64,000 nucleotides of DNA from Chloroflexota bacterium (GTDB lineage: Bacteria > Chloroflexota > Dehalococcoidia > CAUJGQ01). Each line of letters opens with the position of its first letter. Within the stretch, counting starts at the first letter, position 1. The notes beneath the pieces are model-generated. The model was given only the letters and a program-made list of their open reading frames with translations. It was not told the DNA's origin and searched no databases. Of the stretch, positions 3,803 through 30,702 are shown piece after piece. Position numbers and translations under genes: made by a program. Location: contig DAINSK010000004.1 in assembly GCA_036741355.1 (NCBI GenBank), positions 65,289-129,288 of the forward strand. The letters are read 5' to 3'.

Positions 3803-4017
3803 GACCGGTCTCCTGTGAGTAATGGATTGGTCGGGTCGCGGGCAGCTCGCCGGGCCGAGCCGATCGTAGCTGCTGAAGCGCCGCTCCTTATACTCCCATT
3901 GGCGTTTCCACAGCCACGCGAGTCGTTTCTGACCCCGCGGCGTCCTTTATTAGTCGCCGGCAGTGGCCTACGATGAGTTGGAACGCCGCCGAGACTTGAA
4001 GGAGTGATTCGAAAAGC

Positions 4018-4980: not shown

Positions 4981-5448
4981 GTGGCAGATACGCAGTCGGT
5001 CATAACGGACGAGATGCGGAAACTGATCGGAGTGGAATCCGAGCCGTGGACGGTTGAAGTTGAAAAGACCGACGTTCGTATGTTCGCTCGTTCGGTTGGC
5101 CATACCGATCCGATCTTCTATGACGAGACGGAAGCGAAGCAACGCGGATACCCATCGATTGTGGCCCCGCCCGGTTATCTTGGCACGCCAATCTTCATGC
5201 CGGGGAGACCCCAACGCGGCGCGGCCCAGTTGAATATCCCCTATAACCGCCGACTCAACGGCGGCACCGAAATCGAGTACTTCGACGATATCTGCGCGGG
5301 CGACGTGCTCAACGCAACCTCGCAGATCGCCAAAATCGAAGAGACTTCCGGCAGGCTGGGCCCGATGGTCATCGTCACGACCGAGACGATCTACCGACGG
5401 GGCAACACGATCGTAGCTAAATTACGTGGTACCGGTATTCGCTATTAA
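4981..5448 (+). CDS. MaoC-like (hotdog fold) dehydratase N-terminal-type domain protein
   Basis: GTG start preceded by GAGGAG. Sequence resembles FAS1-type/HadA-like N-terminal hotdog dehydratase domain proteins (about 155 aa). Confidence 0.65.
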   Translation: MADTQSVITDEMRKLIGVESEPWTVEVEKTDVRMFARSVGHTDPIFYDETEAKQRGYPSIVAPPGYLGTPIFMPGRPQRGAAQLNIPYNRRLNGGTEIEYFDDICAGDVLNATSQIAKIEETSGRLGPMVIVTTETIYRRGNTIVAKLRGTGIRY

Positions 5449-9070: not shown

Positions 9071-10360
9071 TTGAACGTGACGGCGTCTGCGGCGACCACT
9101 GAGACCGGGTTCATCGCTTCGCTGCGCTTGCGGGAATACCGTTTGCTCTGGTCGTCGACGATGCTTTCGGCCAGTGGTCAATGGACGCTGGTGGTCGGCC
9201 GGGGGTGGCTGGTCCATAACTTGACCCATAGCTCAGGCTGGGTCGGCGTCGTCACGTTTGCTTCGATGGCGCCCTTTCTGCTGGCGACTCCCATCGGCGG
9301 CGTGCTCGCCGACCGCTTCGACCGCCGCCGCCTGAGCATCGTGATGCAAGGCGTGTCGCTGGTCGCCTCGGTTGCATTGGCGTTACTGGTGTTCGCGGGA
9401 AGTGTGCAGGTATGGGAAGTGGTCGCTCTTGCGCTGATTGCAGGCATTGGCCGCGCTGTCGAGACTCCATCAACGACCGCGATTATCCCGAACGTCGTCC
9501 CCACCGGATACCTGCTCAACGCGATTTCGCTCAACAGCGTCGCAACGTTTGGTTCTCGTCTCGTCGGCCCGGCAGTAGCGGCTCTTCTGCTTCAATACTT
9601 GGACGCGGGCAGCGTATTCGTGATGACCGCCGTCTTTTATTTGGCGGCGATGCTCCTTCTGAGCCGCGTAAGGAAAACCGCCGAGCACGCCCGTGCCGAA
9701 GGGGGGTTGTGGCGCCAAAACGTCGATACCTGGAAGTACATCGCGGTCGCGCCGACGATGGCCGTTGTGTTCCTGCTGGTCGGGCTGCATTGCGGCCTGA
9801 CGATGTCGACCGACGCCATCATGCCTCAATTGGCCGATCGCACGCTGCACGGGTCGAGCGGCACCTACGGCCTGCTCATCATGTCCTTCGGTGCCGGTAC
9901 AATGGCAGGCACCTTTTCACTTGGCGGCTTACGTTCCGATCAGACAAAAGGAACCTTGCTGCTGATCACGGGAGTGCTGAGCGGTGTCACTACCGCAATG
10001 CTTGCTTTGATGCATTCAGTCCTGCCTGCGTTCCTTGCGATGTCGGTCATGGGTGCGTCACAGGGCATGTTCATGGCGCTGGGCAATACGCTGATCCAGG
10101 AGGTTGTCCCCGACCAGTTGCGAGGGCGCGTCTCGGCGGCGTATCTCATGGCTGGGGGCGGCGCGATGTCGATCGGTAACCTGATCGAAGGCCCGGTTGC
10201 CGATCGCTACGGCGTGGGGCTTGTACTCCTGCTGCCTTCACTCGCCTTCCTGGCGTTCATGATGTTATTGTCCGGCATTGGGCCGGGGCTTCGCCGGCTG
10301 TATCGCACGGGCACCTTGCAGCGGGTCCCGCAACCGGTTGTTTCCGCGGGCATCGCGTAG
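9071..10360 (+). CDS. MFS transporter
   Basis: About 12 predicted TM segments, MFS-like loop motif (GGVLADRFDRRRL). Start uncertain (TTG 9071 or ATG 9161). Confidence 0.8.
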   Translation: MNVTASAATTETGFIASLRLREYRLLWSSTMLSASGQWTLVVGRGWLVHNLTHSSGWVGVVTFASMAPFLLATPIGGVLADRFDRRRLSIVMQGVSLVASVALALLVFAGSVQVWEVVALALIAGIGRAVETPSTTAIIPNVVPTGYLLNAISLNSVATFGSRLVGPAVAALLLQYLDAGSVFVMTAVFYLAAMLLLSRVRKTAEHARAEGGLWRQNVDTWKYIAVAPTMAVVFLLVGLHCGLTMSTDAIMPQLADRTLHGSSGTYGLLIMSFGAGTMAGTFSLGGLRSDQTKGTLLLITGVLSGVTTAMLALMHSVLPAFLAMSVMGASQGMFMALGNTLIQEVVPDQLRGRVSAAYLMAGGGAMSIGNLIEGPVADRYGVGLVLLLPSLAFLAFMMLLSGIGPGLRRLYRTGTLQRVPQPVVSAGIA

Positions 10361-10857: not shown

Positions 10858-11166
10858 ATGACCATTGAGACCCGCGATCAAAGCGCTATGGAGCTTCGAC
10901 CGGCACTCAATCCTGGCCTTGACCTGTCCTGGTTGGACGGTGGGGATGGCTGGGGAACCAGGGCAGAACCGGGACGCAAAGGGCTAACGCTGGAAGGGAT
11001 TGCTATCGGCCGCTACGGCGATATCCCTGAAACGTCGCGCAACTATACGCTGCGGTTGCGCGGGACCCGTCAGCGGGCAGGGGCCCTACGCGTTACTTCC
11101 TGCAGGTCGCCCGAGCGGCGTCAACGGATGGACCCGGCGCTCGCCGTGTACCTGGACGAAAAGTAG
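10858..11166 (+). CDS. Hypothetical small protein, paralogous to the N-terminal domain of the downstream gene
   Basis: ATG 10858 with GGAGCGG upstream. LSWLDGGDGWGTRAEPGRKGLTLEGIAIGRYGDIPE aligns to FVWMTETDTEWGVRARPGPHGLRLADINIGSYCEVPD of the next ORF. Confidence 0.5.
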   Translation: MTIETRDQSAMELRPALNPGLDLSWLDGGDGWGTRAEPGRKGLTLEGIAIGRYGDIPETSRNYTLRLRGTRQRAGALRVTSCRSPERRQRMDPALAVYLDEK

Positions 11167-11188
11167 ACCCGCATCGTCGGGAGGTGTC

Positions 11189-12271
11189 ATGATCACCGAA
11201 TCCCACCCCGCCGGCGGCCCACCCGCACAAGATCGCATGGTTTTTCCACAGGCGCGCAGTTTTGTCTGGATGACCGAGACGGACACCGAGTGGGGCGTAC
11301 GTGCCCGACCTGGGCCACATGGGCTGCGTTTGGCCGACATCAACATCGGCAGCTATTGCGAGGTCCCGGACGTCTGGCCTTACGACACCGAGATCGCACG
11401 CGGCTCTTCGCCCAACCCGGGTGCGGAAGCGATGGGCTACTCGATCTTTGAAAAGCAGGAGGTTTGGGCACCGAGCGCCGCCGACCTGTACGAAGACGCA
11501 ATCCAGGGACGCTGGGCGCCGGCAACCGATATCCAGTGGTCGACGCTCAGTCCGTTGGCACGCGAGATCGAGGCGGCAGTATGCCAGCTCTGTACGGAGC
11601 TCAGCCAGCGGTCGTATGCGGCCGGAGTGGCGCTGGCGGGCTGGCTGCAGCACATCAGCTACGGCTTTATCGAGGTCAAGAGCTATCTCGCCACCCAGAT
11701 CTTCGCACATTTCCGCCATGCCGAAGTGTTTCGTAAACGGGCGCTCGCAAACGGCGGCGGGCTTGGCATCGAGCCGCCCAACAACTTCGTGCAACGCTAC
11801 ATGGAGTCGCTGAAATACACGGAAGCGTTAGTCGCCATCGGCGTGCTTGATGCTGCCTTCCTCGACGTACTGTTTGCCGCCGGCGACGAACTAGCCCAGA
11901 ACGAGGTGGAACGCGACATTTATCGGCGGTGCCTGGCCGACAACCGTCGCCACCTTCAATACGGCGCCGAGCACCTCGCCTGGGTGGTCGAACACGCACC
12001 GCACCGTGCGACTGAGCTCCAGCGCTACCTGCGGAAAGCCGAGGCCGCGCTTGTTCTGGACCTGGAGCACCCACTGTCATCCGAGCCGTTGATCGTGCTG
12101 TTTGGCGGGGGGCTTGACGCCGTCGATCCCGGGGCCGCGAGGCTGCATGCCTTGCGCCGCGCCCAGGTGGAGCGCTACCTGGAAATCCTCGAGCAGGCGG
12201 GGTTGAGCCACGCGGAGTTTGGTCTGCACTCGCACCTGGCGGCCTACGTCGAGGATGCGGTTCCAGTGTGA
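11189..12271 (+). CDS. Hypothetical protein (N-terminal ~70-aa domain plus all-helical C-terminal domain, possibly ferritin/heme-oxygenase-like)
   Basis: ATG 11189 preceded by GGGAGG at spacing 4. The C-terminal region is helical with E/H-containing motifs (HFRHAEVF, EHLAWVVEH). The fold assignment is inference only. Confidence 0.55.
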   Translation: MITESHPAGGPPAQDRMVFPQARSFVWMTETDTEWGVRARPGPHGLRLADINIGSYCEVPDVWPYDTEIARGSSPNPGAEAMGYSIFEKQEVWAPSAADLYEDAIQGRWAPATDIQWSTLSPLAREIEAAVCQLCTELSQRSYAAGVALAGWLQHISYGFIEVKSYLATQIFAHFRHAEVFRKRALANGGGLGIEPPNNFVQRYMESLKYTEALVAIGVLDAAFLDVLFAAGDELAQNEVERDIYRRCLADNRRHLQYGAEHLAWVVEHAPHRATELQRYLRKAEAALVLDLEHPLSSEPLIVLFGGGLDAVDPGAARLHALRRAQVERYLEILEQAGLSHAEFGLHSHLAAYVEDAVPV

Positions 12272-14338: not shown

Positions 14339-14955
14339 ACTTCCTCCCGGAAGGCACGGTCGTCCCGCAGCTTCTCCAGCACCTCGACGGCGGCGCGCAC
14401 GGCTTTTGAGCGAGAGCTGATGCGGTTCTTTTCGTCGAGACTCAGTTCGGCCATGGTCAGATCGCGGTCGGGTAGCAGGAAAATTGGGTCGTACCCGAAG
14501 CCGTCCCAACCCCGCGGATGCATGGCGATGCGGCCCTCGCACACACCGTCGGTCTGCCACGAACGGCCATCGGGCGTGGCAATCACGATCGCCGCGCGGA
14601 AGCGGGCACGGCGCTTCTCCTCGGGAACGACTTGCAACTCCCGTAATATTAGCTCCGCCTTGCCCTCGGCCGAGAGGTCGATTCCGCCGTAGCGGGCCGA
14701 GTGTACGCCCGGCCGGCCGCCAAGCACATCGACCTCTAGCCCCGAATCGTCGGCTAGGGCTGCCATGTTTGCTTCCCGCGCGAACGCATGCGCCTTGATC
14801 GCGGCGTTCTCGGCGTACGTCGTACCGGTCTCGGGTGGATCGAGGTCCAGCGAGATCTGGGCCGGCGTCAGGACCCGCCATCCGCGCGGCTCCAGCAGCG
14901 CCCGTATCTCCCGGGCTTTGCCGGGATTGCTGGTTGCAAGCAGCAGCCGCGGCAC
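14335..14955 (-). CDS. rdgB: Non-canonical purine NTP pyrophosphatase (RdgB/HAM1 family)
   Basis: [14 protein letters not shown]... and FGYDPIF motifs. 206 aa. GTG start. Confidence 0.9.
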
Positions 14956-14958
14956 GGC

Positions 14959-16470
14959 TTAGCTTCCTTTCGTCGCTGCGGCGAGCGCTGGCACCAGACA
15001 TCCCGCGTCGGGCGAGCCCCAACCCGTGGGGAAGTCCCATCCCGCAAGTGCGGGCTCGCCGGGGTCGTTGCGAAATCGATTGGTTCCCTGGGTCACGTCG
15101 TGGAAGCATTTGCCCGAGGAACCGAGCTGATAGAGCGCGGGGTTGATGTTGCCGAGTCCCTTGCCCGCTGCCTGGTTCGCCAGAGCGACGATGGCGGCCC
15201 AGATCGGCGCGGACGCGCTCGTACCACCGGAGACCCCCGGGTGCGCGCCGCGGTCGGGAGTCGCGGCGAAATAAAGAAGCAGACCTGCGCCGAGAGCGGC
15301 GACGTCGGCCTCGCCGCGTTTGCCGTTCAATAGCTTCTGGAACGAGGGAGGCAGGACGCTCTGCTCCGCCGGTTGGTCGTAAAAGATGCTGATGCCGCTG
15401 CCGCTGGCGACTGAGCTGGAATCGAGCACGGTTTCCGATCCGTAACTGCCGTTTGGGTTCAAACGCAGCATTGTGCCGCCGACGACGGTGATCCACGGAA
15501 CTCCCGCCGGCCAGTCCGCCGACCGAACGGTTGCGACACCGCCCGAGAGCGTATCGGCCAGCGGGCCATGGTCGCCGCTGGCCGTCACAATCGTGACGCC
15601 CTTCCGGCCGGCTTGCTGGTAGAACGCGTCGAAATCGGCCCGCATCGCGGCCCCGTCACTGTCGTCGAGCAGGTTTTCGCTGGTGCCCCAGCTCTGCGAA
15701 ATCACGGAACCAAGCTTGTTGTCCACCGCGTAACGTTCGAGCGCGAGGAATTCCGGCATGCCGTCCACGCCTTCCGTTTCCGAAACCGGGCTGGCCAGTA
15801 CGACGATACGTGCTCCCGGCGCAATGCCATGGACCCACTCGGCGTCGAGCGTCGTTTCGCCCGCCCAGCCCCTGGTGTCAGCCGGGTCGATCTCTTTGAA
15901 GTCGGTACCCAGTGGGTAAAGCTCGATGAGGTCGGCGTCGGGCAGGCCCATCGCATTGCTGAATGCGGCCAGATCCTCTTTCAGCGTGGGGCTGCCAAAG
16001 GAGACGATGATGACGACTGTTTGCCCGGTCCCATCGATGCCGTTGCGGATCAGCCCGTCAACGTTATAGGCAGCGCGTACCTGTGCCGGTTCGTAACAGG
16101 GCACTTTGAGCAACGAGATGCATTCCTGGGTCGTTGGAACGGCGTCGCGGTGCAGCAGCTCTTCCGCCGAGCTCGCGGGCTCGTGGACAGGCCGCGGTGC
16201 CGGCGATATGGCCCGGCCCGGCGCCGATGTCGCCCGGATTTGCGTGCCCGGCGTAGGCGATATGATGACCGGCGTGCTGCCGGCCGCCGCATTCGCAGAC
16301 CCGGTCGGTGCAGTCGTGACGGCGGCAGCCGCGGTCGTGGATCGCGGTTCCACTGTGCCGGCTGGCTGCTTAGACTCGCCACCCGTACACGCCGCGACAG
16401 CCAGTATGACCGCTAGAAAAGCAGCCGCCCGGCAGGCCCTTGAGATCGTTCGTCGGGGGGCAATTACCAC
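14959..16470 (-). CDS. S53 family peptidase (sedolisin/kumamolisin-like) lipoprotein with pro-domain
   Basis: Lipobox ILAVAAC, then a pro-kumamolisin-like activation region. SGDHG (oxyanion Asp) and [13 protein letters not shown] (catalytic Ser) motifs. Confidence 0.8.
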
Positions 16471-16622
16471 ACGACGATCTAATCAGTTACGTCGCGATCC
16501 AAACAAGGGATCGTTCCTTGCCCGGTCGCTCTGGGACGGTGCTGGGCCAGGCGGCTGGAGCGTCTTCTCAACCAGACCCGAAGGAGTAATACTGGAGATG
16601 GTTCAGGATCGGAGGCGATCTC

Positions 16623-17219
16623 ATGGTGGATACGGCACCAGCACGCAGCGAACGCACAGCGGTCGCCGAGCCCGCTCCACGGCTTTTTACGGTCGACGAG
16701 TATTACCGCATGGTCGAAACTGGCATTCTTCACAATAACGACCGCGTCGAGCTGCTTGAAGGGGAGATTATTCAGATGGCGGCAATGGGCAGCCGGCATG
16801 CGGGTTGTATCAACAAGCTGAACAAACGGTTCAGCCACCGGCTTGACGGTCAAGCGCTAATCAGTATCCAGAATCCGTTGCGCCTCTCGTCAAGCTCGGA
16901 ACTCCAGCCCGACGTCATGCTCCTGCGCCCGCGGCCGGATGACTACGCTGAATCGCACCCGGAATCCGCGGACGTGTTGCTGCTAATTGAGGTTTCGGAT
17001 ACCACGCTTCGTTACGACCGAGATACGAAGCTGTCGCTGTACGCTAAGGCCGGTATTCCCGAAGTATGGATCTTCGACCTCGAAGGGGCGCGATTGTTGG
17101 TGCTCCGCAATCCAAGTGCGGACGGCTACGAGCAGGTCTTCACGTTCCGCGCCGGTAGCGCAGTCGCCCCCGCCGCATTTCCAGAGCTCGCGCTCAATGT
17201 TGAAGACATCCTCGGATAG
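16623..17219 (+). CDS. Uma2 family endonuclease (DUF820, putative restriction endonuclease-like fold)
   Basis: FTVDEYYRM...VELLEGEII.M...H...ELQPDV...EV.DTT...D...K...Y pattern typical of Uma2/DUF820. Confidence 0.8.
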   Translation: MVDTAPARSERTAVAEPAPRLFTVDEYYRMVETGILHNNDRVELLEGEIIQMAAMGSRHAGCINKLNKRFSHRLDGQALISIQNPLRLSSSSELQPDVMLLRPRPDDYAESHPESADVLLLIEVSDTTLRYDRDTKLSLYAKAGIPEVWIFDLEGARLLVLRNPSADGYEQVFTFRAGSAVAPAAFPELALNVEDILG

Positions 17220-17296
17220 ATCCGTCGGGGATCACTGTGGCAAGCGGCACCATGAGCAGTCCGCCTATATCGAAACTCGGATATCGCTGGACAATG

Positions 17297-17677
17297 CTAC
17301 CCCCGGGCCTGGTTTGTCCAACTTGCGAGGTCGAAGTAGTCCCGCCAGGCGCTGATCTTGCCGTTGCGAAGCTCGAAGACGCCGGCGACCGGCAGTGCAA
17401 TTGAGTGGTCGCCCTGCTGGAAGCGGTCGATTCGCTCCGTGAAGACGATATCGCCGGCCGCCGCCAGATGCTTGATTTCGAACTCCGCGCTGGACGCCTC
17501 GGCGGCGAAGCGTTCGATGAACCGCGCGATCGCCTCGCGGCCGGTCAACGGCTGCATCGGGATGTTGTGATACACGGCGTCGTCGGTGAAAAACGCCGTG
17601 AGCTCCGTCGGATCCCTGCGCGTCCACGCCTCGCAAAACGAACGAACGGTCGCGGCGTTGTCCGTGTGGTCGGTCAT
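17297..17677 (-). CDS. SnoaL-like / limonene-1,2-epoxide hydrolase family protein (NTF2 fold)
   Basis: 126 aa, ...VRSFCEAWTRRDPTELTAFFTDDAVYHNIPM... is typical of the LEH/SnoaL family. Confidence 0.65.
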   Translation of the reverse strand: MTDHTDNAATVRSFCEAWTRRDPTELTAFFTDDAVYHNIPMQPLTGREAIARFIERFAAEASSAEFEIKHLAAAGDIVFTERIDRFQQGDHSIALPVAGVFELRNGKISAWRDYFDLASWTNQARG

Positions 17678-17695
17678 TGGTCGCCTCGCTGAGCC

Positions 17696-18322
17696 CTAGT
17701 CTTGAAGTACCAGCCGGGTCGATCCACCGTCGCTCCCGACCAGCTTCATCGGAAGCGCCATGATCGTGTAGGCGGCCGGTGGCACGCCGCGCAGGAAGCA
17801 ACCCTCGACAATGGCCACGGCGGCGCCCAGCAGCACCCGGTGCGTCAGCGGCTCCTTCTGACTGAACCCTTCCACCGACAGGTAATCGATCCCCACCAGC
17901 CGGAACCCGTGCGCGACCAGCCAGCGGGCGGCGTCATGAGCGATATAGGTGAAGTCCTCGTGGAAAGTCGAATCCTCAATGAAGGCGCTGTTGCGGCTCT
18001 TGAAGAGGACGCGCTCGAGTCCGGCCGGAAGCTGGAGGTTGTCGAGCAGGTCCGCGGTAATCGCCGTCACACTGCCGACGTCCACGACCAGGCCTGGTCC
18101 GACGAGCGCGTCGAGCGGCACGCTCTCGATGCCGGATCCGCCCGGGATGAAATGGATCGGGGCGTCGACGTGCGTGCCGGTGTGCATCCCCATGCATAAC
18201 CGTGAGACGTTGGCCGGATCGCCCTTATCGATGCCTTTGATCAGGCTCCGGTCGGGTCCCGGTTCCCCCGGCCAGGTAGCCATACCGGCCACCAGCGGCA
18301 GTGTCGCGTCGTAGAGCGTCAT
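17696..18322 (-). CDS. Cyclase family protein (kynurenine formamidase KynB-like)
   Basis: HTGTHVDAPIH motif (HxGTHxDxPxH). ATG 18322 with AGGAT RBS. The listed ORF extends further upstream but lacks support there. Confidence 0.8.
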   Translation of the reverse strand: MTLYDATLPLVAGMATWPGEPGPDRSLIKGIDKGDPANVSRLCMGMHTGTHVDAPIHFIPGGSGIESVPLDALVGPGLVVDVGSVTAITADLLDNLQLPAGLERVLFKSRNSAFIEDSTFHEDFTYIAHDAARWLVAHGFRLVGIDYLSVEGFSQKEPLTHRVLLGAAVAIVEGCFLRGVPPAAYTIMALPMKLVGSDGGSTRLVLQD

Positions 18323-18526
18323 CGGGTTATCCTGAGCCTGGCAGTCGTAGAGGCATGGTACACAATCCAACCCACGTGTCGGATCCAGCCGTACCGCCGG
18401 CTGCAACACGCGCAACACCCGTTCCGCGCCTTGGGTCTGCACTTGGAACGGTCCGCTTCGCGGGCCGCGCTGGAGCCAGTTTCCGTGGCCGAAGGCCAGC
18501 TACCGCTTTCCTCTCGAAGCCGGTCA

Positions 18527-18650
18527 GCGCAATTCGGTAAAGGCGGGCGCTGGTGGACGCTCGGCGCGCTGTGCGTGTGCATGTTCATGATCTTCCTCGA
18601 CGCGACGATCGTGAACGTGGCGCTGCCGTCGATTCAGCGGGGCTGTGGGT
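18527..18650 (+). pseudogene. Remnant of an MFS (DHA2-type) transporter N-terminus
   Basis: ...GRWWTLGALCVCMFMIFLDATIVNVALPSIQRG matches the conserved first TM/motif of DHA2 drug exporters. Reading frame decays immediately afterwards and no continuation is found in other frames. Confidence 0.3.
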
Positions 18651-19938: not shown

Positions 19939-20802
19939 ATGCCGTCCGAAAGCAGGCGCGCCGCAGCAAGTCACGGCGTTCAGCTCAGTCCAAAGCCGAT
20001 AGCTATGGTTGCCGCTCTGTTGCTGATCCTGTTCGCCGGGCCGACATGCGGATCGAGTTCCAATCAGAAACCACCCGCCAACAAGAACGCGGCCCGACCG
20101 CGGATCACGGTCGCCCCTTCCGCCGCAAACGGCGACATCGTTGCCCGCCCGCCGGGCGGTGAAACGGCCGCCGCAGGGTTTGTCCCCAGCTCTCCAACGC
20201 CGGCTGCTACCTGCGGGCCAGGAGACCTGTTGCGGCAGGTGTCCAAAGACGCCGCGTTACCGGCCGACTACGTGCCCCCGGACCTGGTGATGCTCCAGCC
20301 AATCGATGCGTCGCCGAACCTCACAGGATCGTTGATGCTGCGGCGCGAAGCCGAGCAGGCGATTCACCGCCTGCTGGATCAAGCGAGGGCGAACAACCTT
20401 AGCATCGTGGTCCAATCTTCCTATCGCGGTTACCAAGACCAGGCGAAGGTCTACCAATCAGAAGTGCAAAACTTTGGCCAGGCGCAGGCGGACCGCGAGA
20501 GCGCCCGCCCCGGGCACAGCGAGCACCAATTGGGGCTAGCCGTGGATTTCAGCTCGAAGCGCTTGAACTACGACCTGAATGACTCATTCGCGGCGACTCC
20601 GGAAGGAAAGTGGTTGCAGCAAAACGCGACGCAGGCCGGCATCGTGCAGAGTTATCCGGAAGGCCAGGAGCCGGTGACCGGCTACATGTATGAGCCCTGG
20701 CACTACCGGTACATCGGCGTTGAGGCCGCGCAGGCCTTTGCCAGGTCGGGGCAGACGTTGACCGAGTGGCTGTTCGGCCGCCAGCTCGGTTGCCACGCCT
20801 GA
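19939..20802 (+). CDS. M15B-family D-alanyl-D-alanine carboxypeptidase (VanY-like) lipoprotein
   Basis: Signal/lipobox (LFAGPTCG). SYRGYQDQ, SEHQLGLAVD and EPWHYRY motifs of VanY-type zinc peptidases. Confidence 0.8.
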   Translation: MPSESRRAAASHGVQLSPKPIAMVAALLLILFAGPTCGSSSNQKPPANKNAARPRITVAPSAANGDIVARPPGGETAAAGFVPSSPTPAATCGPGDLLRQVSKDAALPADYVPPDLVMLQPIDASPNLTGSLMLRREAEQAIHRLLDQARANNLSIVVQSSYRGYQDQAKVYQSEVQNFGQAQADRESARPGHSEHQLGLAVDFSSKRLNYDLNDSFAATPEGKWLQQNATQAGIVQSYPEGQEPVTGYMYEPWHYRYIGVEAAQAFARSGQTLTEWLFGRQLGCHA

Positions 20803-20815
20803 TCCGCGAGTCGGA

Positions 20816-23800
20816 TTAGGCGCCCTTCTCGAAACGAAGGATGGTCTGGCCGAGCGCCAATTTGGCGCCGTCAGCTAGCTCAGCCGGCTCTGTAAGCAGT
20901 TCGCCGTCCAGCGTCGTGCCGTTGCTGCTGCCACTGTCGGTCACCGTGTAGCTTCCCGATGAGCCGCGATCGATGCGGGCATGAAAACCTGATACTCTGC
21001 GGTCCGCCATGACGATGTCGTTGCTCGGGTGCCGGCCGATGCCCGTGAACTCATCGTTCAAAGTGTACGCGCGGCCCGCATTCTCGCCTTCCAGTACCAG
21101 GAGCCGAGCCCGACGCCGCGTCCACGGCGCGGCCACCATTGCTGCGCTCGCGTCGCTGCGGCCGGTAAGATCCGGCTCCGCCAGTCTTGCGCCAGCCGTA
21201 TGAAAGGCCGCTCCCGCCTCGTCCGTCGAAGCGCTCGTTACCCCCGGCGTCGTCGGGCCGATCGCGTGCGAAGCTTCGCGATCGGCCGCCGCCTGCTCGA
21301 TCGTCTGGCGCATTCCTGGAATAGACTGCAGCAGCGTCCGAAAGTCCTGTTGGTCCAGGGCATAGACGGTGACCGACGTGCGCGCGCGGACGGTCGCGGT
21401 CCGTGGGACGTCGTACATCAGGGCAATTTCACCGAAGTAGTCGCCGGAGCGCAGGACGACGAGGATCCGTCCGGTGGCACCAGAGTCCTGGGTAAGCACC
21501 TCTGCTTCGCCGGAAACGACCAGGTACAGCTTGTCTCCCGCCTCACCCGCCCTGACGATATTTGACCCTACCTCGAATCGCTCCGTGGTCAGACGCGACG
21601 CAAGTCGGGACAGTTGATCGCCGTTCAGTCTCGCGAATATCGGCACGCGACGAAGGTATTCGATCTCCAGCGCCATGCGCAGCACGCCGTCCGTCGTGCC
21701 CCCGCTTTGCTCCTCGTAGAGTCGGGCGTAGAGGCCGCCGGAGGTGAGCAGTTCCGCGTGGGTTCCTTCTTCCATCAACCTGCCGCGGTCGAGGACGTAG
21801 ATACGGTCGGCCGTCGCCGCGGCAGCGAGACGGTGCGTCACGCTGATCGTCGTACGGCCTCGGGCCAGTGAAGCTAGCGTGTGGTTGATCGCGTTCTCGG
21901 TGCGTGGGTCGAGCGCCGAGGTCGCCTCGTCGAGCACCAGGACGCTGGGATTGCGCAGGATGGCGCGCGCGATCGACAGCCGCTGGCGCTGTCCGCCGGA
22001 AAGGTTGGAGCCGCGCTCGCCGACGACAGTATCGTAGCCTTGGGGCATGTTCGTGATGAACTCGTGTACCTCCGCCGCCCTGGCCGCCGCGTCTACCTCC
22101 TGGTCGGTCGCGTCCTCACGTCCAAAGCGGATGTTTTCGCGAACGGAGCGGTTGAAGAGGAAATTCTCCTGGAACACCAGCCCCATCTGACCGCGCAAAG
22201 AATCGATCGACAGGTCACGTGCATCTGCGCCGTCCATGCGCACGGACCCGCGGTCCGCGTCATAAAAACGCAGTATCAGGTTGGTAACCGTACTTTTACC
22301 ACTTCCGGAAGGCCCCACGAACGCGACCGAGGCACCGGCCGGAATGGTGAAGCTGACGTCTTCGAGTTGTGGCTCGCCGCCGGTATAACTGAATGTGACG
22401 TTTTCAAAGGTGATTCCCTGGCGCAGCGGGCCCATTTCGCGGGAGTCGGGCCGATCCGCTACCGCTGGCTCGGCGTTGAGGAGTTCGGTCACCCGGTCCA
22501 TCGCACCGGACGCCTGCTGTAACGACTGGGCAACACCGCTCAAACTCTGTGCGGGCGCGATCAGCCCTCCGAGCAGCGACAGGAACGCGACCAACGCGCC
22601 GAGCGATAGCTGGCCCTGGATTACATAATAACCGCCGACGCCGAACGCGAGTACCTGGATCAGGGTCGTCAGGAGGCTGGCGGAGAGGCCGAACAGCGAC
22701 CCGAGGAAGGTCAGGCGGATGGCGCTTTTGTAGAGCCCGGCCGTCTGGTCCATCCATTCGCGCAAAAACGATCGCTTGAGTCCGTAGGCTCGAATGACCG
22801 GTTGGGCGGTGACGTTTTCCTGAAGAACGGTTGTCACGTCCGAAAGTCGCTCTTGCCGGTCGCGGCTGGCGCGAGACGCGGGCGGGCCAAGGAATCGGGT
22901 GATCAGGTAGAAAAACGGCAGTGCGACAAGCGCGATAACCGTCAGCTTCCAATCGAGATACAGGAGCGACGCGAGGCTGGCGAGGAAGGTCAGCACCAGC
23001 ACCAGCCCTTGCAGCAGGGCGCCGGTGAGTGCGAATTCGACCGCAAACAGGTCGTTCGACATGCGCGACAGGATGTCGCCGGTCCCTGTCTTGCTATAGT
23101 AGCCGGCAGATAGATCCTGGAGCTTCGCAAACATCTGGCGCCGCATGTCACGCAAGACGCCTTCGCCGATCTCGGCGCTCAGGTAGGTTTCCCGCAGCGA
23201 GGCCAGCCCCATCACGAAGAACAGGATCAGCCCCGCTACCAGCATCTTCACCAAGAGCGAGGTGTCTTTCTTGGTAGTGAGCGCGTTGTCGATGAGGTAA
23301 CGCTGAGCGTGGGGCAGAAGCTGGCTGAAGATGATACCGAACAAGATGTAGACGATGATCTCGATCTGCTTGCCGCGGTAAGGGCGCAGATAGACCAGCG
23401 ACGTGCGCAGAAAGCGACCGATCCCGCCGACCGATGGCGCGGACTTGCGGAGCGCCTGCTGCCAGCGCTTTTCGAGCGCCTCGAACGTCTGCCCATAGGC
23501 GGCCTTGGCCGTCGCGGCGGGCTGCTGGGGATCGTAGTCCGATAGCAGCTTGAGGAAACCCTCCGGCCCGCGGTCGGAGATCAACCACCCCACAAATGAC
23601 GTGGAGGCGGCGTCGTAGATCTGTGCGTTCGCCTCACTCGGACCCGCAAACAGCGGCGCAATTTCGAGCGGCATTCCGGAAGCTTTCGCTCCCGCCAGCA
23701 TGAGCGAAAGCTGTTCGGGGGGCGGCACGAGCCCCATGATTTGACCGAAAACGCCTACGAGTCCGTCGAGCAAAAACGGCGCGCGCGCGGGATCGCTGCC

Positions 23801-24232
23801 CGTGTGCATCGATAGGAGGAGCCGCACAAACGTACGTTCGAGGTCTATGCCCGGCGCGTCCGATCGGTAGACACTCCATACCTCGCGCTGGGCTGCAACG
23901 ATGTAGCTTCCCGCGGTAAGCGCCTTGCCGGGTTGCGCCGGGTCCTGCAGCACTTCGCCGAGGTAGACAGATATCTGGCCATCGGGCGCGGGAACAGCGA
24001 GAGTCGCGGCCGCGGCATCGATCAGCGCTTCGAGGCGCTGGGCGACGGCCGACGACTGCTGATCTGCGAAAGAGCCGCTCTGCACGAAGATGCGCAAGTG
24101 AGGGGATTGCTCGACGCGCCGCTCAATCGGCCCGCTAACCCCTAAAGGCTCGAAACAGCTTCCGCAAACCAGCGACCCCGGCGGGTTAGGTTGGCCGCAA
24201 GCCGGGCAGCGTCTATCTGATGCCATCGCCAT
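20816..24232 (-). CDS. Multidomain ABC exporter: N-terminal zinc ribbon plus unknown ~260-aa domain, 6-TM ABC membrane domain, ABC ATPase, cyclic-nucleotide-binding domain, C-terminal FHA domain
   Basis: ATG 24232 with GGAGG RBS. CPACGQPNPPGSLVCGSCFEP zinc ribbon. TMD with 6 helices. Walker A GPSGSGKST, signature LSGGQRQR, Walker B LVLDEATSALD. cNMP-binding region (FARLNGDQLSRL...GDYFGEIALM...RTATVRA). C-terminal FHA (YTLNDEFTGIGRHPSNDIVMADRRVSGFHARI...SSNGTTLDGELL). Confidence 0.85.
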   Translation of the reverse strand: MAMASDRRCPACGQPNPPGSLVCGSCFEPLGVSGPIERRVEQSPHLRIFVQSGSFADQQSSAVAQRLEALIDAAAATLAVPAPDGQISVYLGEVLQDPAQPGKALTAGSYIVAAQREVWSVYRSDAPGIDLERTFVRLLLSMHTGSDPARAPFLLDGLVGVFGQIMGLVPPPEQLSLMLAGAKASGMPLEIAPLFAGPSEANAQIYDAASTSFVGWLISDRGPEGFLKLLSDYDPQQPAATAKAAYGQTFEALEKRWQQALRKSAPSVGGIGRFLRTSLVYLRPYRGKQIEIIVYILFGIIFSQLLPHAQRYLIDNALTTKKDTSLLVKMLVAGLILFFVMGLASLRETYLSAEIGEGVLRDMRRQMFAKLQDLSAGYYSKTGTGDILSRMSNDLFAVEFALTGALLQGLVLVLTFLASLASLLYLDWKLTVIALVALPFFYLITRFLGPPASRASRDRQERLSDVTTVLQENVTAQPVIRAYGLKRSFLREWMDQTAGLYKSAIRLTFLGSLFGLSASLLTTLIQVLAFGVGGYYVIQGQLSLGALVAFLSLLGGLIAPAQSLSGVAQSLQQASGAMDRVTELLNAEPAVADRPDSREMGPLRQGITFENVTFSYTGGEPQLEDVSFTIPAGASVAFVGPSGSGKSTVTNLILRFYDADRGSVRMDGADARDLSIDSLRGQMGLVFQENFLFNRSVRENIRFGREDATDQEVDAAARAAEVHEFITNMPQGYDTVVGERGSNLSGGQRQRLSIARAILRNPSVLVLDEATSALDPRTENAINHTLASLARGRTTISVTHRLAAAATADRIYVLDRGRLMEEGTHAELLTSGGLYARLYEEQSGGTTDGVLRMALEIEYLRRVPIFARLNGDQLSRLASRLTTERFEVGSNIVRAGEAGDKLYLVVSGEAEVLTQDSGATGRILVVLRSGDYFGEIALMYDVPRTATVRARTSVTVYALDQQDFRTLLQSIPGMRQTIEQAAADREASHAIGPTTPGVTSASTDEAGAAFHTAGARLAEPDLTGRSDASAAMVAAPWTRRRARLLVLEGENAGRAYTLNDEFTGIGRHPSNDIVMADRRVSGFHARIDRGSSGSYTVTDSGSSNGTTLDGELLTEPAELADGAKLALGQTILRFEKGA

Positions 24233-24276
24233 CGCTGGACCTCCGGTGCATGGCGGCAGTATCTGCTATGCGGAAT

Positions 24277-24624
24277 TCATGCGACAAGCATGTGGGGCCC
24301 ACGGATCCCGATATTTTTCAGCATGCATAAACCACCCATCGAGTGGCCGATGAGCAAGAACCGGGGCAGATCGAGGTGCAGGACCAGCTCAAACACATCT
24401 TCTGCATAGCGTTCGATCGTGTATCCGGTCTTAGCGTGGCTGCTGTCCCCGGCGCCGCGGAGGTCGACGCGAATGATCCGCCAGTCCGCCGGCAGACGCG
24501 GCACGGTCTCGTCCCAATCGCGCATTGAACCGGTGTAGCCATGTACGCGCACGATGACATCGCCGGAACCCTGGCGGTCTTCGTAGTGGAGTACGGTGCC
24601 ATCGCTGGTTGTAAAGGTCGTCAT
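24277..24624 (-). pseudogene. Truncated alpha/beta-hydrolase (N-terminal 115 aa only, nucleophile elbow GHSMGG present, Asp/His part missing)
   Basis: Strong RBS (AAGGAGA) and ATG, HGYTGS and GHSMGG motifs. ORF stops about 20 aa after the nucleophile elbow and no continuation is found in other frames. Confidence 0.45.
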
Positions 24625-24658
24625 GCGAGTCTCCTTTGGCGGTGGTCCCGTAAAATTG

Positions 24659-25561
24659 TCAGTCTACGCGCGGTTGCGCGGACGCAAACGGGTCGCGTCC
24701 GGCCTGAATGCGGTTGGCTACTTCCCGGCTCAACACCGGGTTGGCGGCAACAATCGACCCGTGCCACTTGCGAAGGCCGAGATCCTGGGGCGCTTCGAAC
24801 GCATACAACGGCGTCCAAGGTTGGTCCCGCTCGTCGCGCCGGAGGACGACGCCGTTGCTCTCGAGGATGAGCGAGACGCCGGCCGCTACGTCCCACAGCC
24901 GCGGAATCCAGAAAGCGACGAACGGCAGCGCACCGCAGGATGTGAGTGCCAGTTCGAGCGCAATGCTGCCAAGCGTGCGGACATCTTTGCGACCGCGGAG
25001 CTCCCGCCGCCGTTCGATCTCTGATTGATAGGCGGCCGGCAAATGTGATAGGCGCGCGGGATGCAGGCACGGATCGGCGTCGACCGAGATCGGCTGGCCG
25101 TTCATCCTCGCGCCGCCGGCCTTGCGCGCCGTGAACAACGCCGGACCGCCATCGGGACCCAGCGGCGTGTAGATCGCGCCCGCTATGGGGACCCCGTACC
25201 AGAGCACGCCAATTGACACGCACCACAGCGACAGACCGTTCAGGTAATTTGTGGTGCCGTCTAACGGGTCGATGACCCAGACGATGGGCGTGCGGTCGGG
25301 GCCCGGATCGCGGCCCTCCTCGCCGATGACGCACTCGTCGGGAAATCGGTGTGAGATCTCTCGAAAGAGGAACTCTTCGGCTTCGCGATCGGCTTCACTG
25401 ACGGGGTTGCCGGTGCCGTTGCCCTTATATTCGATGTGTAATGAGCCGCGGGCTCTGGCTGCGAGCCGCTCACCCGCCTCGATGGCCCACTTCCCTGCGC
25501 AAGCCTCGATCTCTTTGAAGAGAGACGTTTCTACCTTGTCCGCCGCGTCCGTCGTCACCAC
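24659..25561 (-). CDS. Inositol monophosphatase family protein (SuhB/ImpA/HisN-like)
   Basis: WVIDPLDGTTNY and related IMPase metal-binding motifs. 300 aa. Confidence 0.85.
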   Translation of the reverse strand: MVTTDAADKVETSLFKEIEACAGKWAIEAGERLAARARGSLHIEYKGNGTGNPVSEADREAEEFLFREISHRFPDECVIGEEGRDPGPDRTPIVWVIDPLDGTTNYLNGLSLWCVSIGVLWYGVPIAGAIYTPLGPDGGPALFTARKAGGARMNGQPISVDADPCLHPARLSHLPAAYQSEIERRRELRGRKDVRTLGSIALELALTSCGALPFVAFWIPRLWDVAAGVSLILESNGVVLRRDERDQPWTPLYAFEAPQDLGLRKWHGSIVAANPVLSREVANRIQAGRDPFASAQPRVD

Positions 25562-25597
25562 TCCACGAGACTCAAACCCAATGTCGCGTCTCGTTTA

Positions 25598-25915
25598 TCA
25601 TGCCACAGTGACCGGTACCCGGCACGATTTGGCGACCTTCGTGGTCATCAGTGCAACCAACGAATGAGCTCCTACCGCATTTGCCGTTTGAGTGCCGGCG
25701 CGTTGCAAGGTAGTTTTGGCGCCCTCAGACGCTTGCCTGGCCTGCGAGACCGCATTGGCCGCCGCCTGGTCTGCTAGTATTGACCAGCCGCGGTTTCGCG
25801 ATCTGAGAAGGGCGTCTACCAGCGTCGTACGGGGTCCGGGGAGAGTGACGGGATGAACACCAACGGCTATGCGCGTCCGGAATTGCTCGCCGAGCCCGAG
25901 TGGCTGGCCGAGCAT
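25598..25915 (-). CDS. Very uncertain small Ala/Gln-rich ORF
   Basis: Protein-like (non-Arg-rich) composition in its C-terminal two-thirds, but the only ATG overlaps the rhodanese 5' end on the opposite strand. Confidence 0.15.
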   Translation of the reverse strand: MLGQPLGLGEQFRTRIAVGVHPVTLPGPRTTLVDALLRSRNRGWSILADQAAANAVSQARQASEGAKTTLQRAGTQTANAVGAHSLVALMTTKVAKSCRVPVTVA

Positions 25916-26683
25916 ATCAACGACGAAACCGTGCGCGTAATCGACTGCGCCACGCTAGATGCTTACCGACGGGCCCATATCACCGGCGCGGTGGGGCTGC
26001 CGGTTCACATCTATATCAAGGATCCCAAGGACGAGACCTTCGTCATGCCGCCCGACCAGTTTGCAGAACTCATGGGCAAGCTTGGGGTCGGGGACGACAC
26101 GACCGTCGTGACCTACGACGATAACAACAGCCTGGTCGCAACTCGCCTCTGGTGGGTGCTGAATTACTACGGCCATACCAAAAGCAAAGTGCTCAACGGC
26201 GGCTGGCACCGCTGGCTGCATGAGGGCAGGGCCATCACCCCCCACGCGGCGCACCCGCAGCCAGCAACCTTCACGCCAACGACCAACGAGGACCTGGTTT
26301 GCGGCCTCGATGACCTCAAGGGGCGCATCGGCAAGGCGGGCGTACAGATCATGGACGTGCGCACCGACGAGGAATGGACGGGTGCGAACGACCGTGGCAA
26401 CAAGCGTAGCGGCCACGTTCCCGGAGCCGTCCACCTCGAATGGCTTAAATTCGTCTCGAAAGACGACCGGCGCGTGTTCCTGCCCGCCGACGATCTGCGG
26501 GCGATGCTAAGAGAGGTTGGCATCACTCCAGAATCGGAAGTCGTCACTTATTGACAGGGAGGCATCCGTGCGGCGCACGGAATGTTTGTGTTGAAGCTGC
26601 TCGGTTGGGACCGCGTCCGCAACTACGATGGCTCGATGCGCGACTGGGCGAACCGCGACGATACGCCGCTGACGGTCGACTAG
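25853..26683 (+). CDS. Two-domain rhodanese (thiosulfate/3-mercaptopyruvate sulfurtransferase) with in-frame TGA at the catalytic Cys position (candidate selenocysteine, otherwise pseudogene)
   Basis: ATG 25853 with GGGGAGAG RBS. N-terminal inactive and C-terminal active rhodanese domains. ...EVVTY-TGA-QGGIRAAHGMFVLKLLGWDRVRNYDGSMRDW... means the UGA (26552-26554) replaces the active-site Cys of the CxGGxR loop. 43 codons continue in frame to TAG 26681-26683. Confidence 0.6.
26561..26590 (+). other. Hairpin 11 nt downstream of the in-frame UGA (possible bacterial SECIS element)
   Basis: GGCAU-CCGUGC-GGC-GCACGG-A-AUGUU: a perfect 6-bp GC-rich stem with GGC loop, extendable by 5 more pairs with one bulge. 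The apical loop lies 18-20 nt after the UGA. Confidence 0.3.
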
Positions 26684-29788: not shown

Positions 29789-29958
29789 CCTAACCCTCGT
29801 CTCCCTTCCCGGTGCGGGAAGGGACGATATTTGGAAGCAGGGGTCCGGCCCGGTGGTGGTTCGGATTGGATGCATTGCCATGCGCCCCTACGGCAGTTGC
29901 AGCAACGGGACTCGTAGCAAGCTCCCCTTCCCTCTCAGGGAAGGGGACGGGGGTTAGG
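29789..29958. repeat. MITE-like element copy A: two inverted ~38-bp GC-rich hairpin arms with conserved outer end CCTAACCC(C/T)CGTC(C/T)CC flanking a ~95-bp spacer
   Basis: Left arm CCTAACCCTCGTCTCCCTTCCCGGTGCGGGAAGGGACG (29789-29826). Right arm CTCCCCTTCCCTCTCAGGGAAGGGGACGGGGGTTAGG (29923-29958) is its near reverse complement. Each arm contains its own internal hairpin. Confidence 0.5.
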
Positions 29959-30702
29959 TGTGACGGCGCGGGCAGCGATCGCTGCGATCGTATCCGGCTG
30001 GGCGCGGACGGTGCCGCAGTGCGGGCAAAAGTGCCAACTCGCGCGCAAGGGTTTGTGGCAGTCAGCGCAGCGTTTGGCAGCGCCGGGTACGCCGCGCACC
30101 GCGGCTATCGCTGCCGTGGCTTTCTCCAGAGTGACTCCCTGTCGGGCGAGGCTACTGACCATTTGAATATCGGAGAGGCGTAGAACGGCCAGAAGAAGGT
30201 GCTCGGTGCCGATGCTTGGATCGTGCCAGCGTCGGGCTTCATTCTTCGCCAGGCCGGCGAAGCGGCGGCCGCTTACCGCGCGGGACAGCACCGATACATT
30301 GAGCATCAGCGGACGGAGGGTCGGTTCGTTGACCCCCAAGCCGCGGAGGACGCGGGCTCCGAGGCCGTCGTCTGACCTTGCGAGCGCAAGCAGCACGTGC
30401 TCGGGATAGAGTACGGCATAGTCGGAAAGTTGCCAGGCGGCGAGCACGACCTGTGCAGCTTCCGTCGTGCAGATCTGCAGCCGCCATCCGGGCGGCGACG
30501 CCACCGCGCTCGCCGGAGGCGCGATACCGGGTGGCAGCACTTTGCCGATATAGCGGCTGACGGTGCGGGCCTTCACCTTCCAAAACACATACCAGTAGGG
30601 CCCGTGTCCGCCCTTGCGGTCGCAGGTCTTACACCCTTGCTTCCCGCAGCGCACAAGCTGCGGGCGGTAGGAGCGTCCCTCGAAGCTGAACGATGCGTCC
30701 AC
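29935..30702 (-). CDS. Clp N-terminal (Clp_N repeat) domain protein flanked by zinc-ribbon-like motifs
   Basis: Two Clp_N repeats (EHVLLALARSDDGLGARVLRGLGV, TEHLLLAVLRLSD). N-terminal CGKQGCKTCDRKGGHGPYWY and C-terminal CADCHK...CPHCG Cys clusters. The 3' end overlaps repeat copy A. Confidence 0.6.
   Translation of the reverse strand: MDASFSFEGRSYRPQLVRCGKQGCKTCDRKGGHGPYWYVFWKVKARTVSRYIGKVLPPGIAPPASAVASPPGWRLQICTTEAAQVVLAAWQLSDYAVLYPEHVLLALARSDDGLGARVLRGLGVNEPTLRPLMLNVSVLSRAVSGRRFAGLAKNEARRWHDPSIGTEHLLLAVLRLSDIQMVSSLARQGVTLEKATAAIAAVRGVPGAAKRCADCHKPLRASWHFCPHCGTVRAQPDTIAAIAARAVTPNPRPLP

Follow-up and report, generated by a model that had tools for sequence, protein, structure and literature searches.

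The 64,000-nucleotide stretch analysed here (the window; contig DAINSK010000004.1 of a Chloroflexota bacterium of the Dehalococcoidia) carries on its reverse strand, at 20816..24232, the gene for an ATP-binding cassette (ABC) half-transporter of 1138 amino acids. This protein is likely to be a regulated exporter of peptides, belonging to a type that has not been described. In one and the same chain, the membrane and ATPase domains are preceded by a zinc ribbon and by a protease-like domain that has lost its metal site, and are followed by a cyclic-nucleotide-binding (cNMP) domain and by an FHA domain. The gene is real, and the pump it encodes is conserved and belongs to an unstudied Chloroflexota family. 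Our preferred reading, to which we give about an even chance, is that of a peptide exporter which responds to cyclic nucleotides and phospho-threonine as gating signals and in which the cargo docks on the dead protease. The architecture itself and the loss of catalysis in the N-terminal domain are, taken together, held with much higher confidence. An initial annotation, made from the letters of the stretch, had described the protein as an exporter with an unusual signal-integrating architecture. This interpretation proved largely right, and the identity of the N-terminal domain and the family context had to be added to it.

Domain architecture of the transporter

The gene is a single open reading frame (ORF) with an ATG start, its translation runs without interruption and its base composition equals that of its neighbours (GC content at third codon positions, 0.76). 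A search of 5.8 billion proteins returned about 18 clusters with the same domain order at 43-65% identity. They originate from assemblies of NCBI, JGI, ENA and Logan, and those with a named organism are labelled as metagenome-assembled genomes (MAGs) of Chloroflexota or Dehalococcoidia. The layout can be traced in other genomes, as the initial annotation had envisaged, and its view of the 1138 residues as one polypeptide is upheld by the uninterrupted frame and by this recurrence.

The transporter core consists of an ABC_membrane domain (PF00664, residues 292-560, E 2.9e-44) and an ABC_tran domain (PF00005, residues 623-772, E 2.2e-35); these two assignments, as well as those of the two sensor domains described below, had all been proposed before and lie over the Pfam gathering scores. 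Six hydrophobic segments are found by hydropathy between residues 290 and 560, and the ATPase has the complete set of canonical motifs that had been ascribed to it, that is Walker A (GPSGSGKS, 640-647), Q-loop (VFQE, 686-689), signature (LSGGQ, 744-748), Walker B (VLVLDE, 764-769) and H-loop (VTHR, 798-801). A six-helix membrane domain and one ATPase in a single chain make the protein an ABCB-type half-transporter (type IV fold, formerly 'type I'). The nearest solved half-transporters are Sav1866, TM287/288, MsbA and HlyB, and Sav1866 is matched over the full length with an E-value of 1.8e-109. The half-transporter would pair with itself to form an exporter of the ABCB type, similar to Sav1866, MsbA and HlyB. 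The N-terminal 280 residues are placed in the cytoplasm because they are followed by six membrane helices and a cytoplasmic ATPase. In the resulting topology, all accessory parts would be cytoplasmic, with the ribbon and the dead zincin ahead of helix 1, the cNMP domain after the ATPase and the FHA domain on a tether of about 50 residues.

The C4 zinc ribbon proposed by the initial annotation is confirmed by its motif. The pattern CPAC-x12-CGSC is present (motif CPACGQPNPPGSLVCGSC at residues 9-26), and homologues carry DZR and Zn_Ribbon_1 matches, but the Pfam match in the window protein itself is sub-threshold (DZR, E 0.0057). Close relatives have a double zinc ribbon in the alignment, of which the second has been lost in the window copy.

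A zincin fold that has lost its metal site

The initial annotation had assigned the roughly 260 residues between the ribbon and the membrane domain to no recognisable family; a fold search and the alignment of the active-site helix identify them instead as a zincin fold of the MA clan without the HExxH motif. Specifically, the fold search returned zincins and not cysteine peptidases, and the mixed sheet, the active-site helix and the lower helical subdomain of zincins are all found. At the active-site helix the window protein has DLERTFVRLLLSMH, the single His of which is not conserved. The His pair is absent from every ABC-fused copy (100+) in any register of the alignment, which wobbles at this helix by up to 2 residues. 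Since, in addition, stand-alone relatives retain HExxH (HETTH, HEQAH, HETVH and others) together with the downstream glutamate of EG(L/I)A, the domain is regarded as a pseudo-protease. An active metalloprotease is ruled out, as there is no His ligand. In terms of profile scores, Peptidase_MA_2 (PF13485) reaches 14.6-17.6 bits against a gathering cut-off of 32.4, and a weak signal of the same family appears in 13 of 30 family members (best E 1.9e-4), in every case below the cut-off; a protein homologue search with the 30-sequence alignment of the domain gave no matches. Taken together, we are confident that the N-terminal domain is a Peptidase_MA_2-like zincin that is catalytically dead.

The conserved residues of the domain are R123, D125, P127 and G128, which are invariant, and E132 and D156, which are usually kept. 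The four invariant positions come straight after the edge strand, at the entry to the helix that once held the active site. To judge from secondary-structure positions rather than from a superposition, the conserved residues would be located in and near the strand-helix pair from which the substrate cleft of zincins is built. The dead protease domain would dock the cargo or its leader; it occupies the position held by the C39 domain in peptidase-containing ABC transporters (PCATs) and by the C39-like domain in HlyB.

Two sensor domains behind the ATPase

The cNMP domain begins about 15 residues past the ATPase domain and is matched by PF00027 at residues 884-970 (E 2.2e-21, 76.1 bits against a cut-off of 27.5). 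Its best solved matches are the regulatory domains of PKG and PKA, with E-values down to 2.6e-41, and its phosphate-binding cassette, FGEIALMYDVPRTAT (933-947), is intact and aligns with theirs residue for residue. In particular, the conserved Glu and Arg of the cassette are present (FGE...PRTAT), as in genuine PF00027 members. Beyond the cNMP domain comes a linker (residues 990-1039) that differs from homologue to homologue in both length and sequence; a model of the full-length protein gives it predicted local distance difference test (pLDDT) values of 24-36. It leads to the FHA domain, which is matched by PF00498 at residues 1065-1128 (E 3e-16, 60 bits against a cut-off of 20.7). The Arg, Ser, His and Asn contacts for phospho-threonine are kept in GR 1066-1067, SGFH 1081-1084 and NGT 1104-1106, which align with those of GarA (E 3e-11), in agreement with membership in PF00498. 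As far as can be read from their sequences, then, both sensor domains retain the residues that contact their ligands.

How these domains might act on the pump can be outlined as follows. Cyclic AMP (cAMP) or cyclic GMP (cGMP), produced by an associated cyclase, would bind beneath the ATPase dimer and tune its closure. The FHA domain would couple the activity or the clustering of the pump to Ser/Thr-kinase signalling, its target being a phospho-threonine either on a partner protein or on the Thr-rich linker of the transporter itself, as in Rv1747 (PMC3138270; see below).

An exporter family with a movable FHA domain

Of the 1811 matches obtained in a profile search of 1.84 billion representatives, the best 150 were examined with domain hidden Markov models (HMMs) derived from the alignment. 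Most of the full-length matches in this set are 940-1040 amino acids long and are composed, in this order, of the pseudo-zincin, the membrane domain, the ATPase and the cNMP domain. The FHA domain is a variable addition: 43 of the 60 full-length members in the set lack it, 12 have it at the C-terminus like the window protein, and five have it at the N-terminus. In some relatives (P0012, P0014, P0016-18) the chain stops after the cNMP domain, and an additional clade with an N-terminal FHA comprises nine clusters, one of which is a protein from a Nitrolancea MAG. At three sister loci (L004, L010 and L027) the FHA is encoded in the same operon by a separate zinc-ribbon-FHA gene; the FHA domains of these separate proteins are 43-47% identical to that of the window protein and share with it an RRRPRxL lead-in. 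The occurrence of the FHA at either end of the pump and as an operon-linked protein amounts to Rosetta-stone-type evidence that it works together with the pump.

The core of pseudo-zincin, membrane domain, ATPase and cNMP domain defines a sizeable family, of which the window protein is one branch and to which the FHA is an add-on. The family has no name as yet; the window protein shows all of its traits, namely a zincin without HExxH but with the motifs YR.D.PG..LE and (D/E)G(L/I), an ABCB core and a C-terminal cNMP domain. In other words, the unusual signal-integrating exporter of the initial annotation survives in that both sensors keep their contact residues and the layout is conserved, but it is not a one-off. 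A genome-collection search with a closer alignment of the N-terminal domain returned one partial locus only.

Gene neighbourhoods of more distant relatives

A metagenome scan with the alignment of the N-terminal domain yielded 26 loci, whose ORFs were classified by HMM and phmmer. In the more distant relatives among the 35 or so loci covered in all, the family is associated with peptide-product clusters and with cyclases, in two recurrent arrangements and several individual ones. Type A (L004:5604-9790; L010:2877-15613; L027:5983-16728) is a conserved signalling and processing operon in which the ABC gene is followed by a Crp-like regulator, a GAF protein, an S8 peptidase and the zinc-ribbon-FHA protein. 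In L010 and L027 a divergent gene codes for a protein of 1196-1198 amino acids with a zinc ribbon, a class III cyclase, AAA_16 and TPR. Zinc ribbons stand at the head of three of the type A operon and cyclase proteins, and the ribbon of the window protein resembles that of the L027 cyclase-STAND protein (45% over 33 amino acids, E 0.001). A Crp-like gene adjoins the pump in L004, L010 and L027 and, on the upstream side, in L036.

Type B comprises 14 distinct locus groups (among L011-L024, L026, L030-L035), with a divergent NB-ARC-TPR-LuxR regulator, one to three tandem small ORFs, the ABC gene and, usually, genes for a GAF protein and an S8 peptidase. The small ORFs are 80-120 amino acids long and lie directly upstream of the ABC gene (for example L015:9583-9867 and L019:4059-5325). 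They form a family without a Pfam match, in which a conserved leader, MADQ..DVQSLAQKL..F.QTLTPGEQ...DVQG[FY], is followed by a hypervariable tail, and have the appearance that is typical of precursor peptides. Moreover, a cytoplasmic S8 peptidase, a GAF protein or both adjoin the pump in 8 of the 9 groups with enough flank. The partner S8 peptidase is a highly conserved protein of about 290 amino acids with an intact Asp-His-Ser triad and no signal peptide, and is best matched by the QhpE leader-peptidase and mycosin models (QhpE E 1e-32 to 1e-34, below the equivalog cut-off). In the sister clades this neighbouring peptidase would remove the leader.

Other relatives are found beside different sets of genes. 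L007 has two precursors of the NHLP clan with Trp/Gly-rich cores that score above the NCBIfam cut-off (3585-4031 and 9282-9701), together with two sulfotransferase-like genes, a GAF and an S8 gene. The locus of P0018 includes genes for a B12-radical SAM protein, an ATP-grasp protein, a P450 and a CHASE2-cyclase as well as two small ORFs. At L008, a LanC-like gene lies immediately upstream of the FHA-fused P0011, which is 49% identical to the window protein, and genes for a STAND-LuxR regulator and a B12-radical SAM protein are found downstream of it. In L036, finally, the pump P0290 of the N-terminal-FHA clade is followed by an MvdD-type ATP-grasp gene surrounded by six precursor-like ORFs that are paralogues of one another (14640-18647).

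The precursor-like ORFs have in common what may be a junction between leader and core. It reads DVQGF, DVQGY, DVAGF or DLEGF in all 29 distinct type B ORFs, DVQGH, DVSGY, DVSAY, EVSGY or DVTGY in five of the six L036 ORFs, and EEVRAY or EEVRGY in both L007 precursors, so that the general form [DE]-[VL]-x-[GA]-[YFH] is common to three unrelated precursor-like families beside the same pump family. The strict form, [DE][DE][VL].[GA][YFH], is hit by chance only 0-1 times when the short frames of an entire locus are scanned. With so few examples and such a short motif, we treat the putative shared junction as a lead.

Two further observations were made at these loci. At L025:3772-6808, secreted pentapeptide-repeat proteins follow a sister-clade pump in place of the GAF and S8 genes. 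At L011:17199-20657, on the reverse strand and 4 kb downstream of one of the type B pumps, a protein cut by the end of the locus combines an N-terminal part that looks kinase-like by eye with Guanylate_cyc, NB-ARC, TPR and LuxR domains.

Comparison with known systems

Among the closest parallels are the PCATs and HlyB, the latter of which has a catalytically dead C39-like domain that is used for cargo handling (PMC11026475, PMC6363468). Like them, the window protein is an ABCB-type half-transporter whose first membrane helix is immediately preceded by a cytoplasmic domain with a protease fold, and small leader-bearing ORFs adjoin its relatives. However, its protease fold is a zincin rather than the papain-like C39, with no PF03412 match; the putative junction of the family is [DE]-V-x-[GA]-[YFH] and not a double glycine; two sensor domains follow the ATPase; and no membrane-fusion or outer-membrane partner is seen. 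The gene for a cargo with a cleavable leader, which characterises PCAT loci, is present beside the relatives and not in the window.

A cNMP-type domain on a peptide-type ABC exporter is known from HetC of Nostoc PCC 7120, where it lies at the N-terminus, ahead of the C39 peptidase, is required for function and in vitro binds ppGpp, not cAMP (PMC10986499). In HetC and the NHLP exporters (TIGR03796/TIGR03797) the type of exporter and the presence of a cNMP-type domain resemble the window protein, in which the domain instead follows the ATPase on its C-terminal side and contains a cassette of the PKA/PKG type. The corresponding NCBIfam scores are 356.6 against a cut-off of 853.3 and 322.9 against 709.4; those for MsbA and the MsbA-related family (TIGR02203, TIGR02204) are 421.4 against 602 and 462 against 780. 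Membership in the MsbA, HlyB, CydDC and NHLP-ABC equivalog families was rejected, all being below cut-off.

The initial annotation had drawn a comparison with Rv1747 of Mycobacterium tuberculosis, an FHA-fused ABC exporter with two N-terminal FHA domains, whose transport is linked to Ser/Thr-kinase signalling and whose operon includes the kinase gene pknF (PMC3138270, PMC5549992). The fusion of an ABC exporter to FHA is indeed common to both, but the likeness is one of analogy only, as the window protein has a single C-terminal FHA, the membrane domain before the ATPase and no kinase gene within 64 kb (about 50 ORFs). Rv1747 belongs to another class of exporters, in which an ABC-2-type membrane domain comes after the ATPase domain.

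Two further systems provide precedents for single steps. In QhpE/QhpF, a cytoplasmic subtilisin-like leader peptidase works with an ABC exporter. The sister-clade S8 peptidases match the QhpE model best and are without a signal peptide, which suggests cytoplasmic removal of the leader followed by ABC export; unlike in that system, no such peptidase is found near the window gene, and the match is below the equivalog cut-off. In MalK, MetN and ModC, a ligand domain after the ATPase can control closure of the ATPase dimer. The cNMP domain of the window protein is likewise fused after the ATPase and would lie beneath the dimer. These proteins, however, are importer components with unrelated folds and substrate-type ligands, whereas the window protein has a cyclic-nucleotide beta-barrel on an exporter.

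The window protein works like a mixture of PCAT/HlyB, Rv1747, HetC/NHLP and MsbA, yet fails the defining features of each of them. In a review that bears on sensor domains fused to transporters, these are mentioned only for transporters of the major facilitator superfamily, and related UspA fusions are called uncharacterised (PMC10710835). In literature searches that did not extend to subscription journals, we found no account of a zincin-fold domain on an ABC exporter or of such a domain order.

Function and alternative explanations

We rate the protein as a regulated ABC exporter of the dedicated kind, set apart by a new domain on the cargo side and by the unusual pairing of its sensors. In the preferred reading, the pump would export a ribosomally made peptide. 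We infer the cargo class of the window protein, the docking role of the N-terminal domain and both gating steps, and the peptide clusters beside its relatives point the same way. A more far-reaching version, which we put forward tentatively and consider less probable than its opposite, is that of a new class of leader-guided exporters in which a zincin replaces C39 and reads the [DE]-V-x-[GA]-[Y/F/H] junction, the cNMP and FHA domains jointly license export, and the window protein is the most condensed form, its cargo being encoded elsewhere in the genome.

Several points weigh against a gated peptide exporter. In its transporter core the protein is as near to lipid and drug exporters as to exporters of peptides or proteins; the neighbourhood evidence comes from relatives at 30-50% identity; and gating and docking by the three accessory domains are predictions. 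The ligand of the cNMP domain cannot be assumed, because the comparable domain of HetC binds ppGpp and not cAMP. In addition, the neighbours that mark the sister clades, that is S8 peptidases, GAF proteins or precursor-like ORFs, are missing from the window and from the loci of its four closest relatives, L001, L002, L005 and L009, as are cyclases, kinases and STAND proteins. The leader HMM has no match in any of the six frames of the window, and the scan for the junction motif gives no candidate within 6 kb of the gene, in keeping with the remark of the initial annotation that there is no obvious substrate gene.

An MsbA-type flippase for lipids, glycolipids or envelope precursors, in which the accessory domains tune export to growth signals and the N-terminal domain is a scaffold unrelated to the cargo, is unlikely, though it is the foremost of the alternatives. 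MsbA_rel (3.1e-138) and MsbA (5.3e-126) are the top NCBIfam matches, but their scores lie far below the cut-offs (462 against 780 and 421 against 602). Similarly, the gene of a VanY cell-wall peptidase adjoins the ABC gene and is not conserved beside homologues, and the lack of a cargo gene in the window locus and in the closest relatives contrasts with the repeated occurrence of the wider family within peptide-product clusters.

Slightly less likely still is a multidrug or xenobiotic efflux pump switched by second messengers, for which the position in peptide clusters would reflect self-resistance rather than leader-guided export. The proximity of the core to Sav1866, TM287/288, BmrCD and the P-glycoprotein halves, and the isolation of the gene in the window clade, would fit such a pump. 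A conserved, cleft-bearing domain at the position where cargo is handled would be unexpected in it, and leader-bearing ORFs immediately upstream of the pump in 14 locus groups argue for a dedicated cargo.

That the N-terminal domain is still an enzyme, with a non-canonical site (for example Glu132 and Asp156) that processes the cargo and would make the protein a peptidase-containing transporter of a new clan, appears improbable. An acidic residue is usually retained in the LER and LLDG motifs, and the conserved residues are clustered at the old cleft; both His ligands, however, are gone in every ABC-fused copy whatever the register, Glu132 is replaced in some relatives (by D in P0011, T in P0015 and F in P0016), and the separate, intact S8 peptidase beside the sister-clade pumps would render a second protease redundant. 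An assembly or frameshift artefact joining separate genes, for which no support was found beyond the deletions that the upstream hydrolase remnant shows in this region, has a negligible probability and is refuted, because the reading frame of the gene is uninterrupted and homologues in independent NCBI, JGI, ENA and Logan assemblies keep the same order of five to six domains at 43-65% identity.

Should the gated peptide exporter with its dead protease dock prove true, the consequences would reach beyond this protein. What is understood of dedicated peptide exporters at present comes from a single accessory domain, which is the C39 peptidase or, in HlyB, its inactive counterpart; an unrelated protease fold that was recruited to the same place and later lost its activity would make the dead protease as cargo dock a general solution. 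For genome mining, the domain would also be a new marker of clusters for peptide natural products in the Chloroflexota, from which few products have been characterised, and the junction motif, if real, would be a direct handle for finding the cargo. Finally, a PKA-like domain on an ATPase combined with FHA would offer a compact test case for second messengers and kinase signals that act post-translationally on a transporter.

The locus in the window

The coordinates of the gene, of its encoded domains and of its neighbours are collected in Table 1.

Table 1. The ABC half-transporter gene, the domains of its product and the adjoining genes, in positions of the window
Feature	Position	Strand	Basis
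VanY-type D-Ala-D-Ala carboxypeptidase	19939-20802	+	Pfam; convergent with the ABC gene
ABC half-transporter gene, complete	20816..24232	-	ORF, Pfam domains, full-length homologues at 43-65% identity
N-terminal C4 zinc ribbon, residues 7-30	24143..24214	-	Motif CPAC-x12-CGSC; sub-threshold DZR; alignment with double-ribbon homologues
Cytoplasmic pseudo-zincin domain, residues 36-270	23423..24127	-	Metallopeptidase fold without HExxH; conserved motifs YRSDAPG..LER, LLDGL
Six-helix membrane domain, ABCB-type exporter, residues 285-600	22433..23380	-	PF00664, hydropathy, solved half-transporters
ABC ATPase domain, residues 605-845	21698..22420	-	PF00005, all catalytic motifs
Cyclic-nucleotide-binding domain, residues 860-985	21278..21655	-	PF00027, matches to PKG/PKA regulatory domains
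Disordered Ala/Pro/Thr/Ser-rich linker, residues 990-1039	21116..21265	-	pLDDT in full-length model, alignment
C-terminal FHA domain, residues 1040-1136, RRRxRL stretch ahead	20825..21115	-	PF00498, GarA match
Alpha/beta-hydrolase remnant, 115 amino acids, directly upstream	24277-24624	-	Pfam, profile positions 2-84 of 245
Inositol-monophosphatase-family gene, upstream	24659..25561	-	Position kept only among closest relatives; synteny with L001, L002

The VanY-type peptidase and the truncated hydrolase lie where the initial annotation had placed them. VanY is absent beside the homologues in L001-L009. The hydrolase remnant stops just past the GHSMGG nucleophile elbow, and in a tblastn comparison it matches only residues 1-98 of the 275-residue orthologue in L001. 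As neither gene is conserved across the family, they are uninformative on function and were rejected as functional partners. What the window locus and its closest relatives have in common is only the upstream inositol-monophosphatase gene and the alpha/beta hydrolase; a gene of the isocitrate/isopropylmalate dehydrogenase family, found in relatives between the inositol-monophosphatase-family and ABC genes, is missing in the window.

The Ser/Thr kinases and cyclases that the initial annotation had in mind for the genome were not found in the window: a Pfam search of its roughly 50 ORFs detected no kinase, PP2C-type phosphatase, nucleotide cyclase, STAND ATPase or peptide-modifying enzyme. In a tblastn search of the window with the S8, GAF, cyclase-STAND, STAND-LuxR and precursor ORFs of the sister clades, the only matches were the cNMP, FHA and zinc-ribbon parts of the ABC gene itself. 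The window has an S8 ORF at 14959-16470, which was rejected as the conserved partner peptidase on the basis of Pfam and tblastn. A scan of 20400-26000 for promoters and terminators gave nothing over the shuffle expectation.

Some other genes of the window deserve mention. Four ORFs of 321-473 amino acids with good codon bias, at 7505-8926 (-), 11000-12271 (+), 48790-49755 (+) and 54155-55183 (-), are without a Pfam match at E 1e-4. An ORF for an AMP-binding enzyme (56523-57575, reverse strand, 350 amino acids) covers only profile positions 5-326 of 384 and is directly followed by a second ORF (55904-56530, same strand), so that the two may represent a split or frameshifted gene. At 29935-30702, on the reverse strand, a protein of 255 amino acids contains DUF6788 and two Clp_N repeats together with a zinc ribbon at its C-terminus. 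Finally, an encapsulin shell gene (Linocin_M18, E 3.3e-68) is located at 4018-4884 on the forward strand, with a small ORF downstream at 4981-5448.

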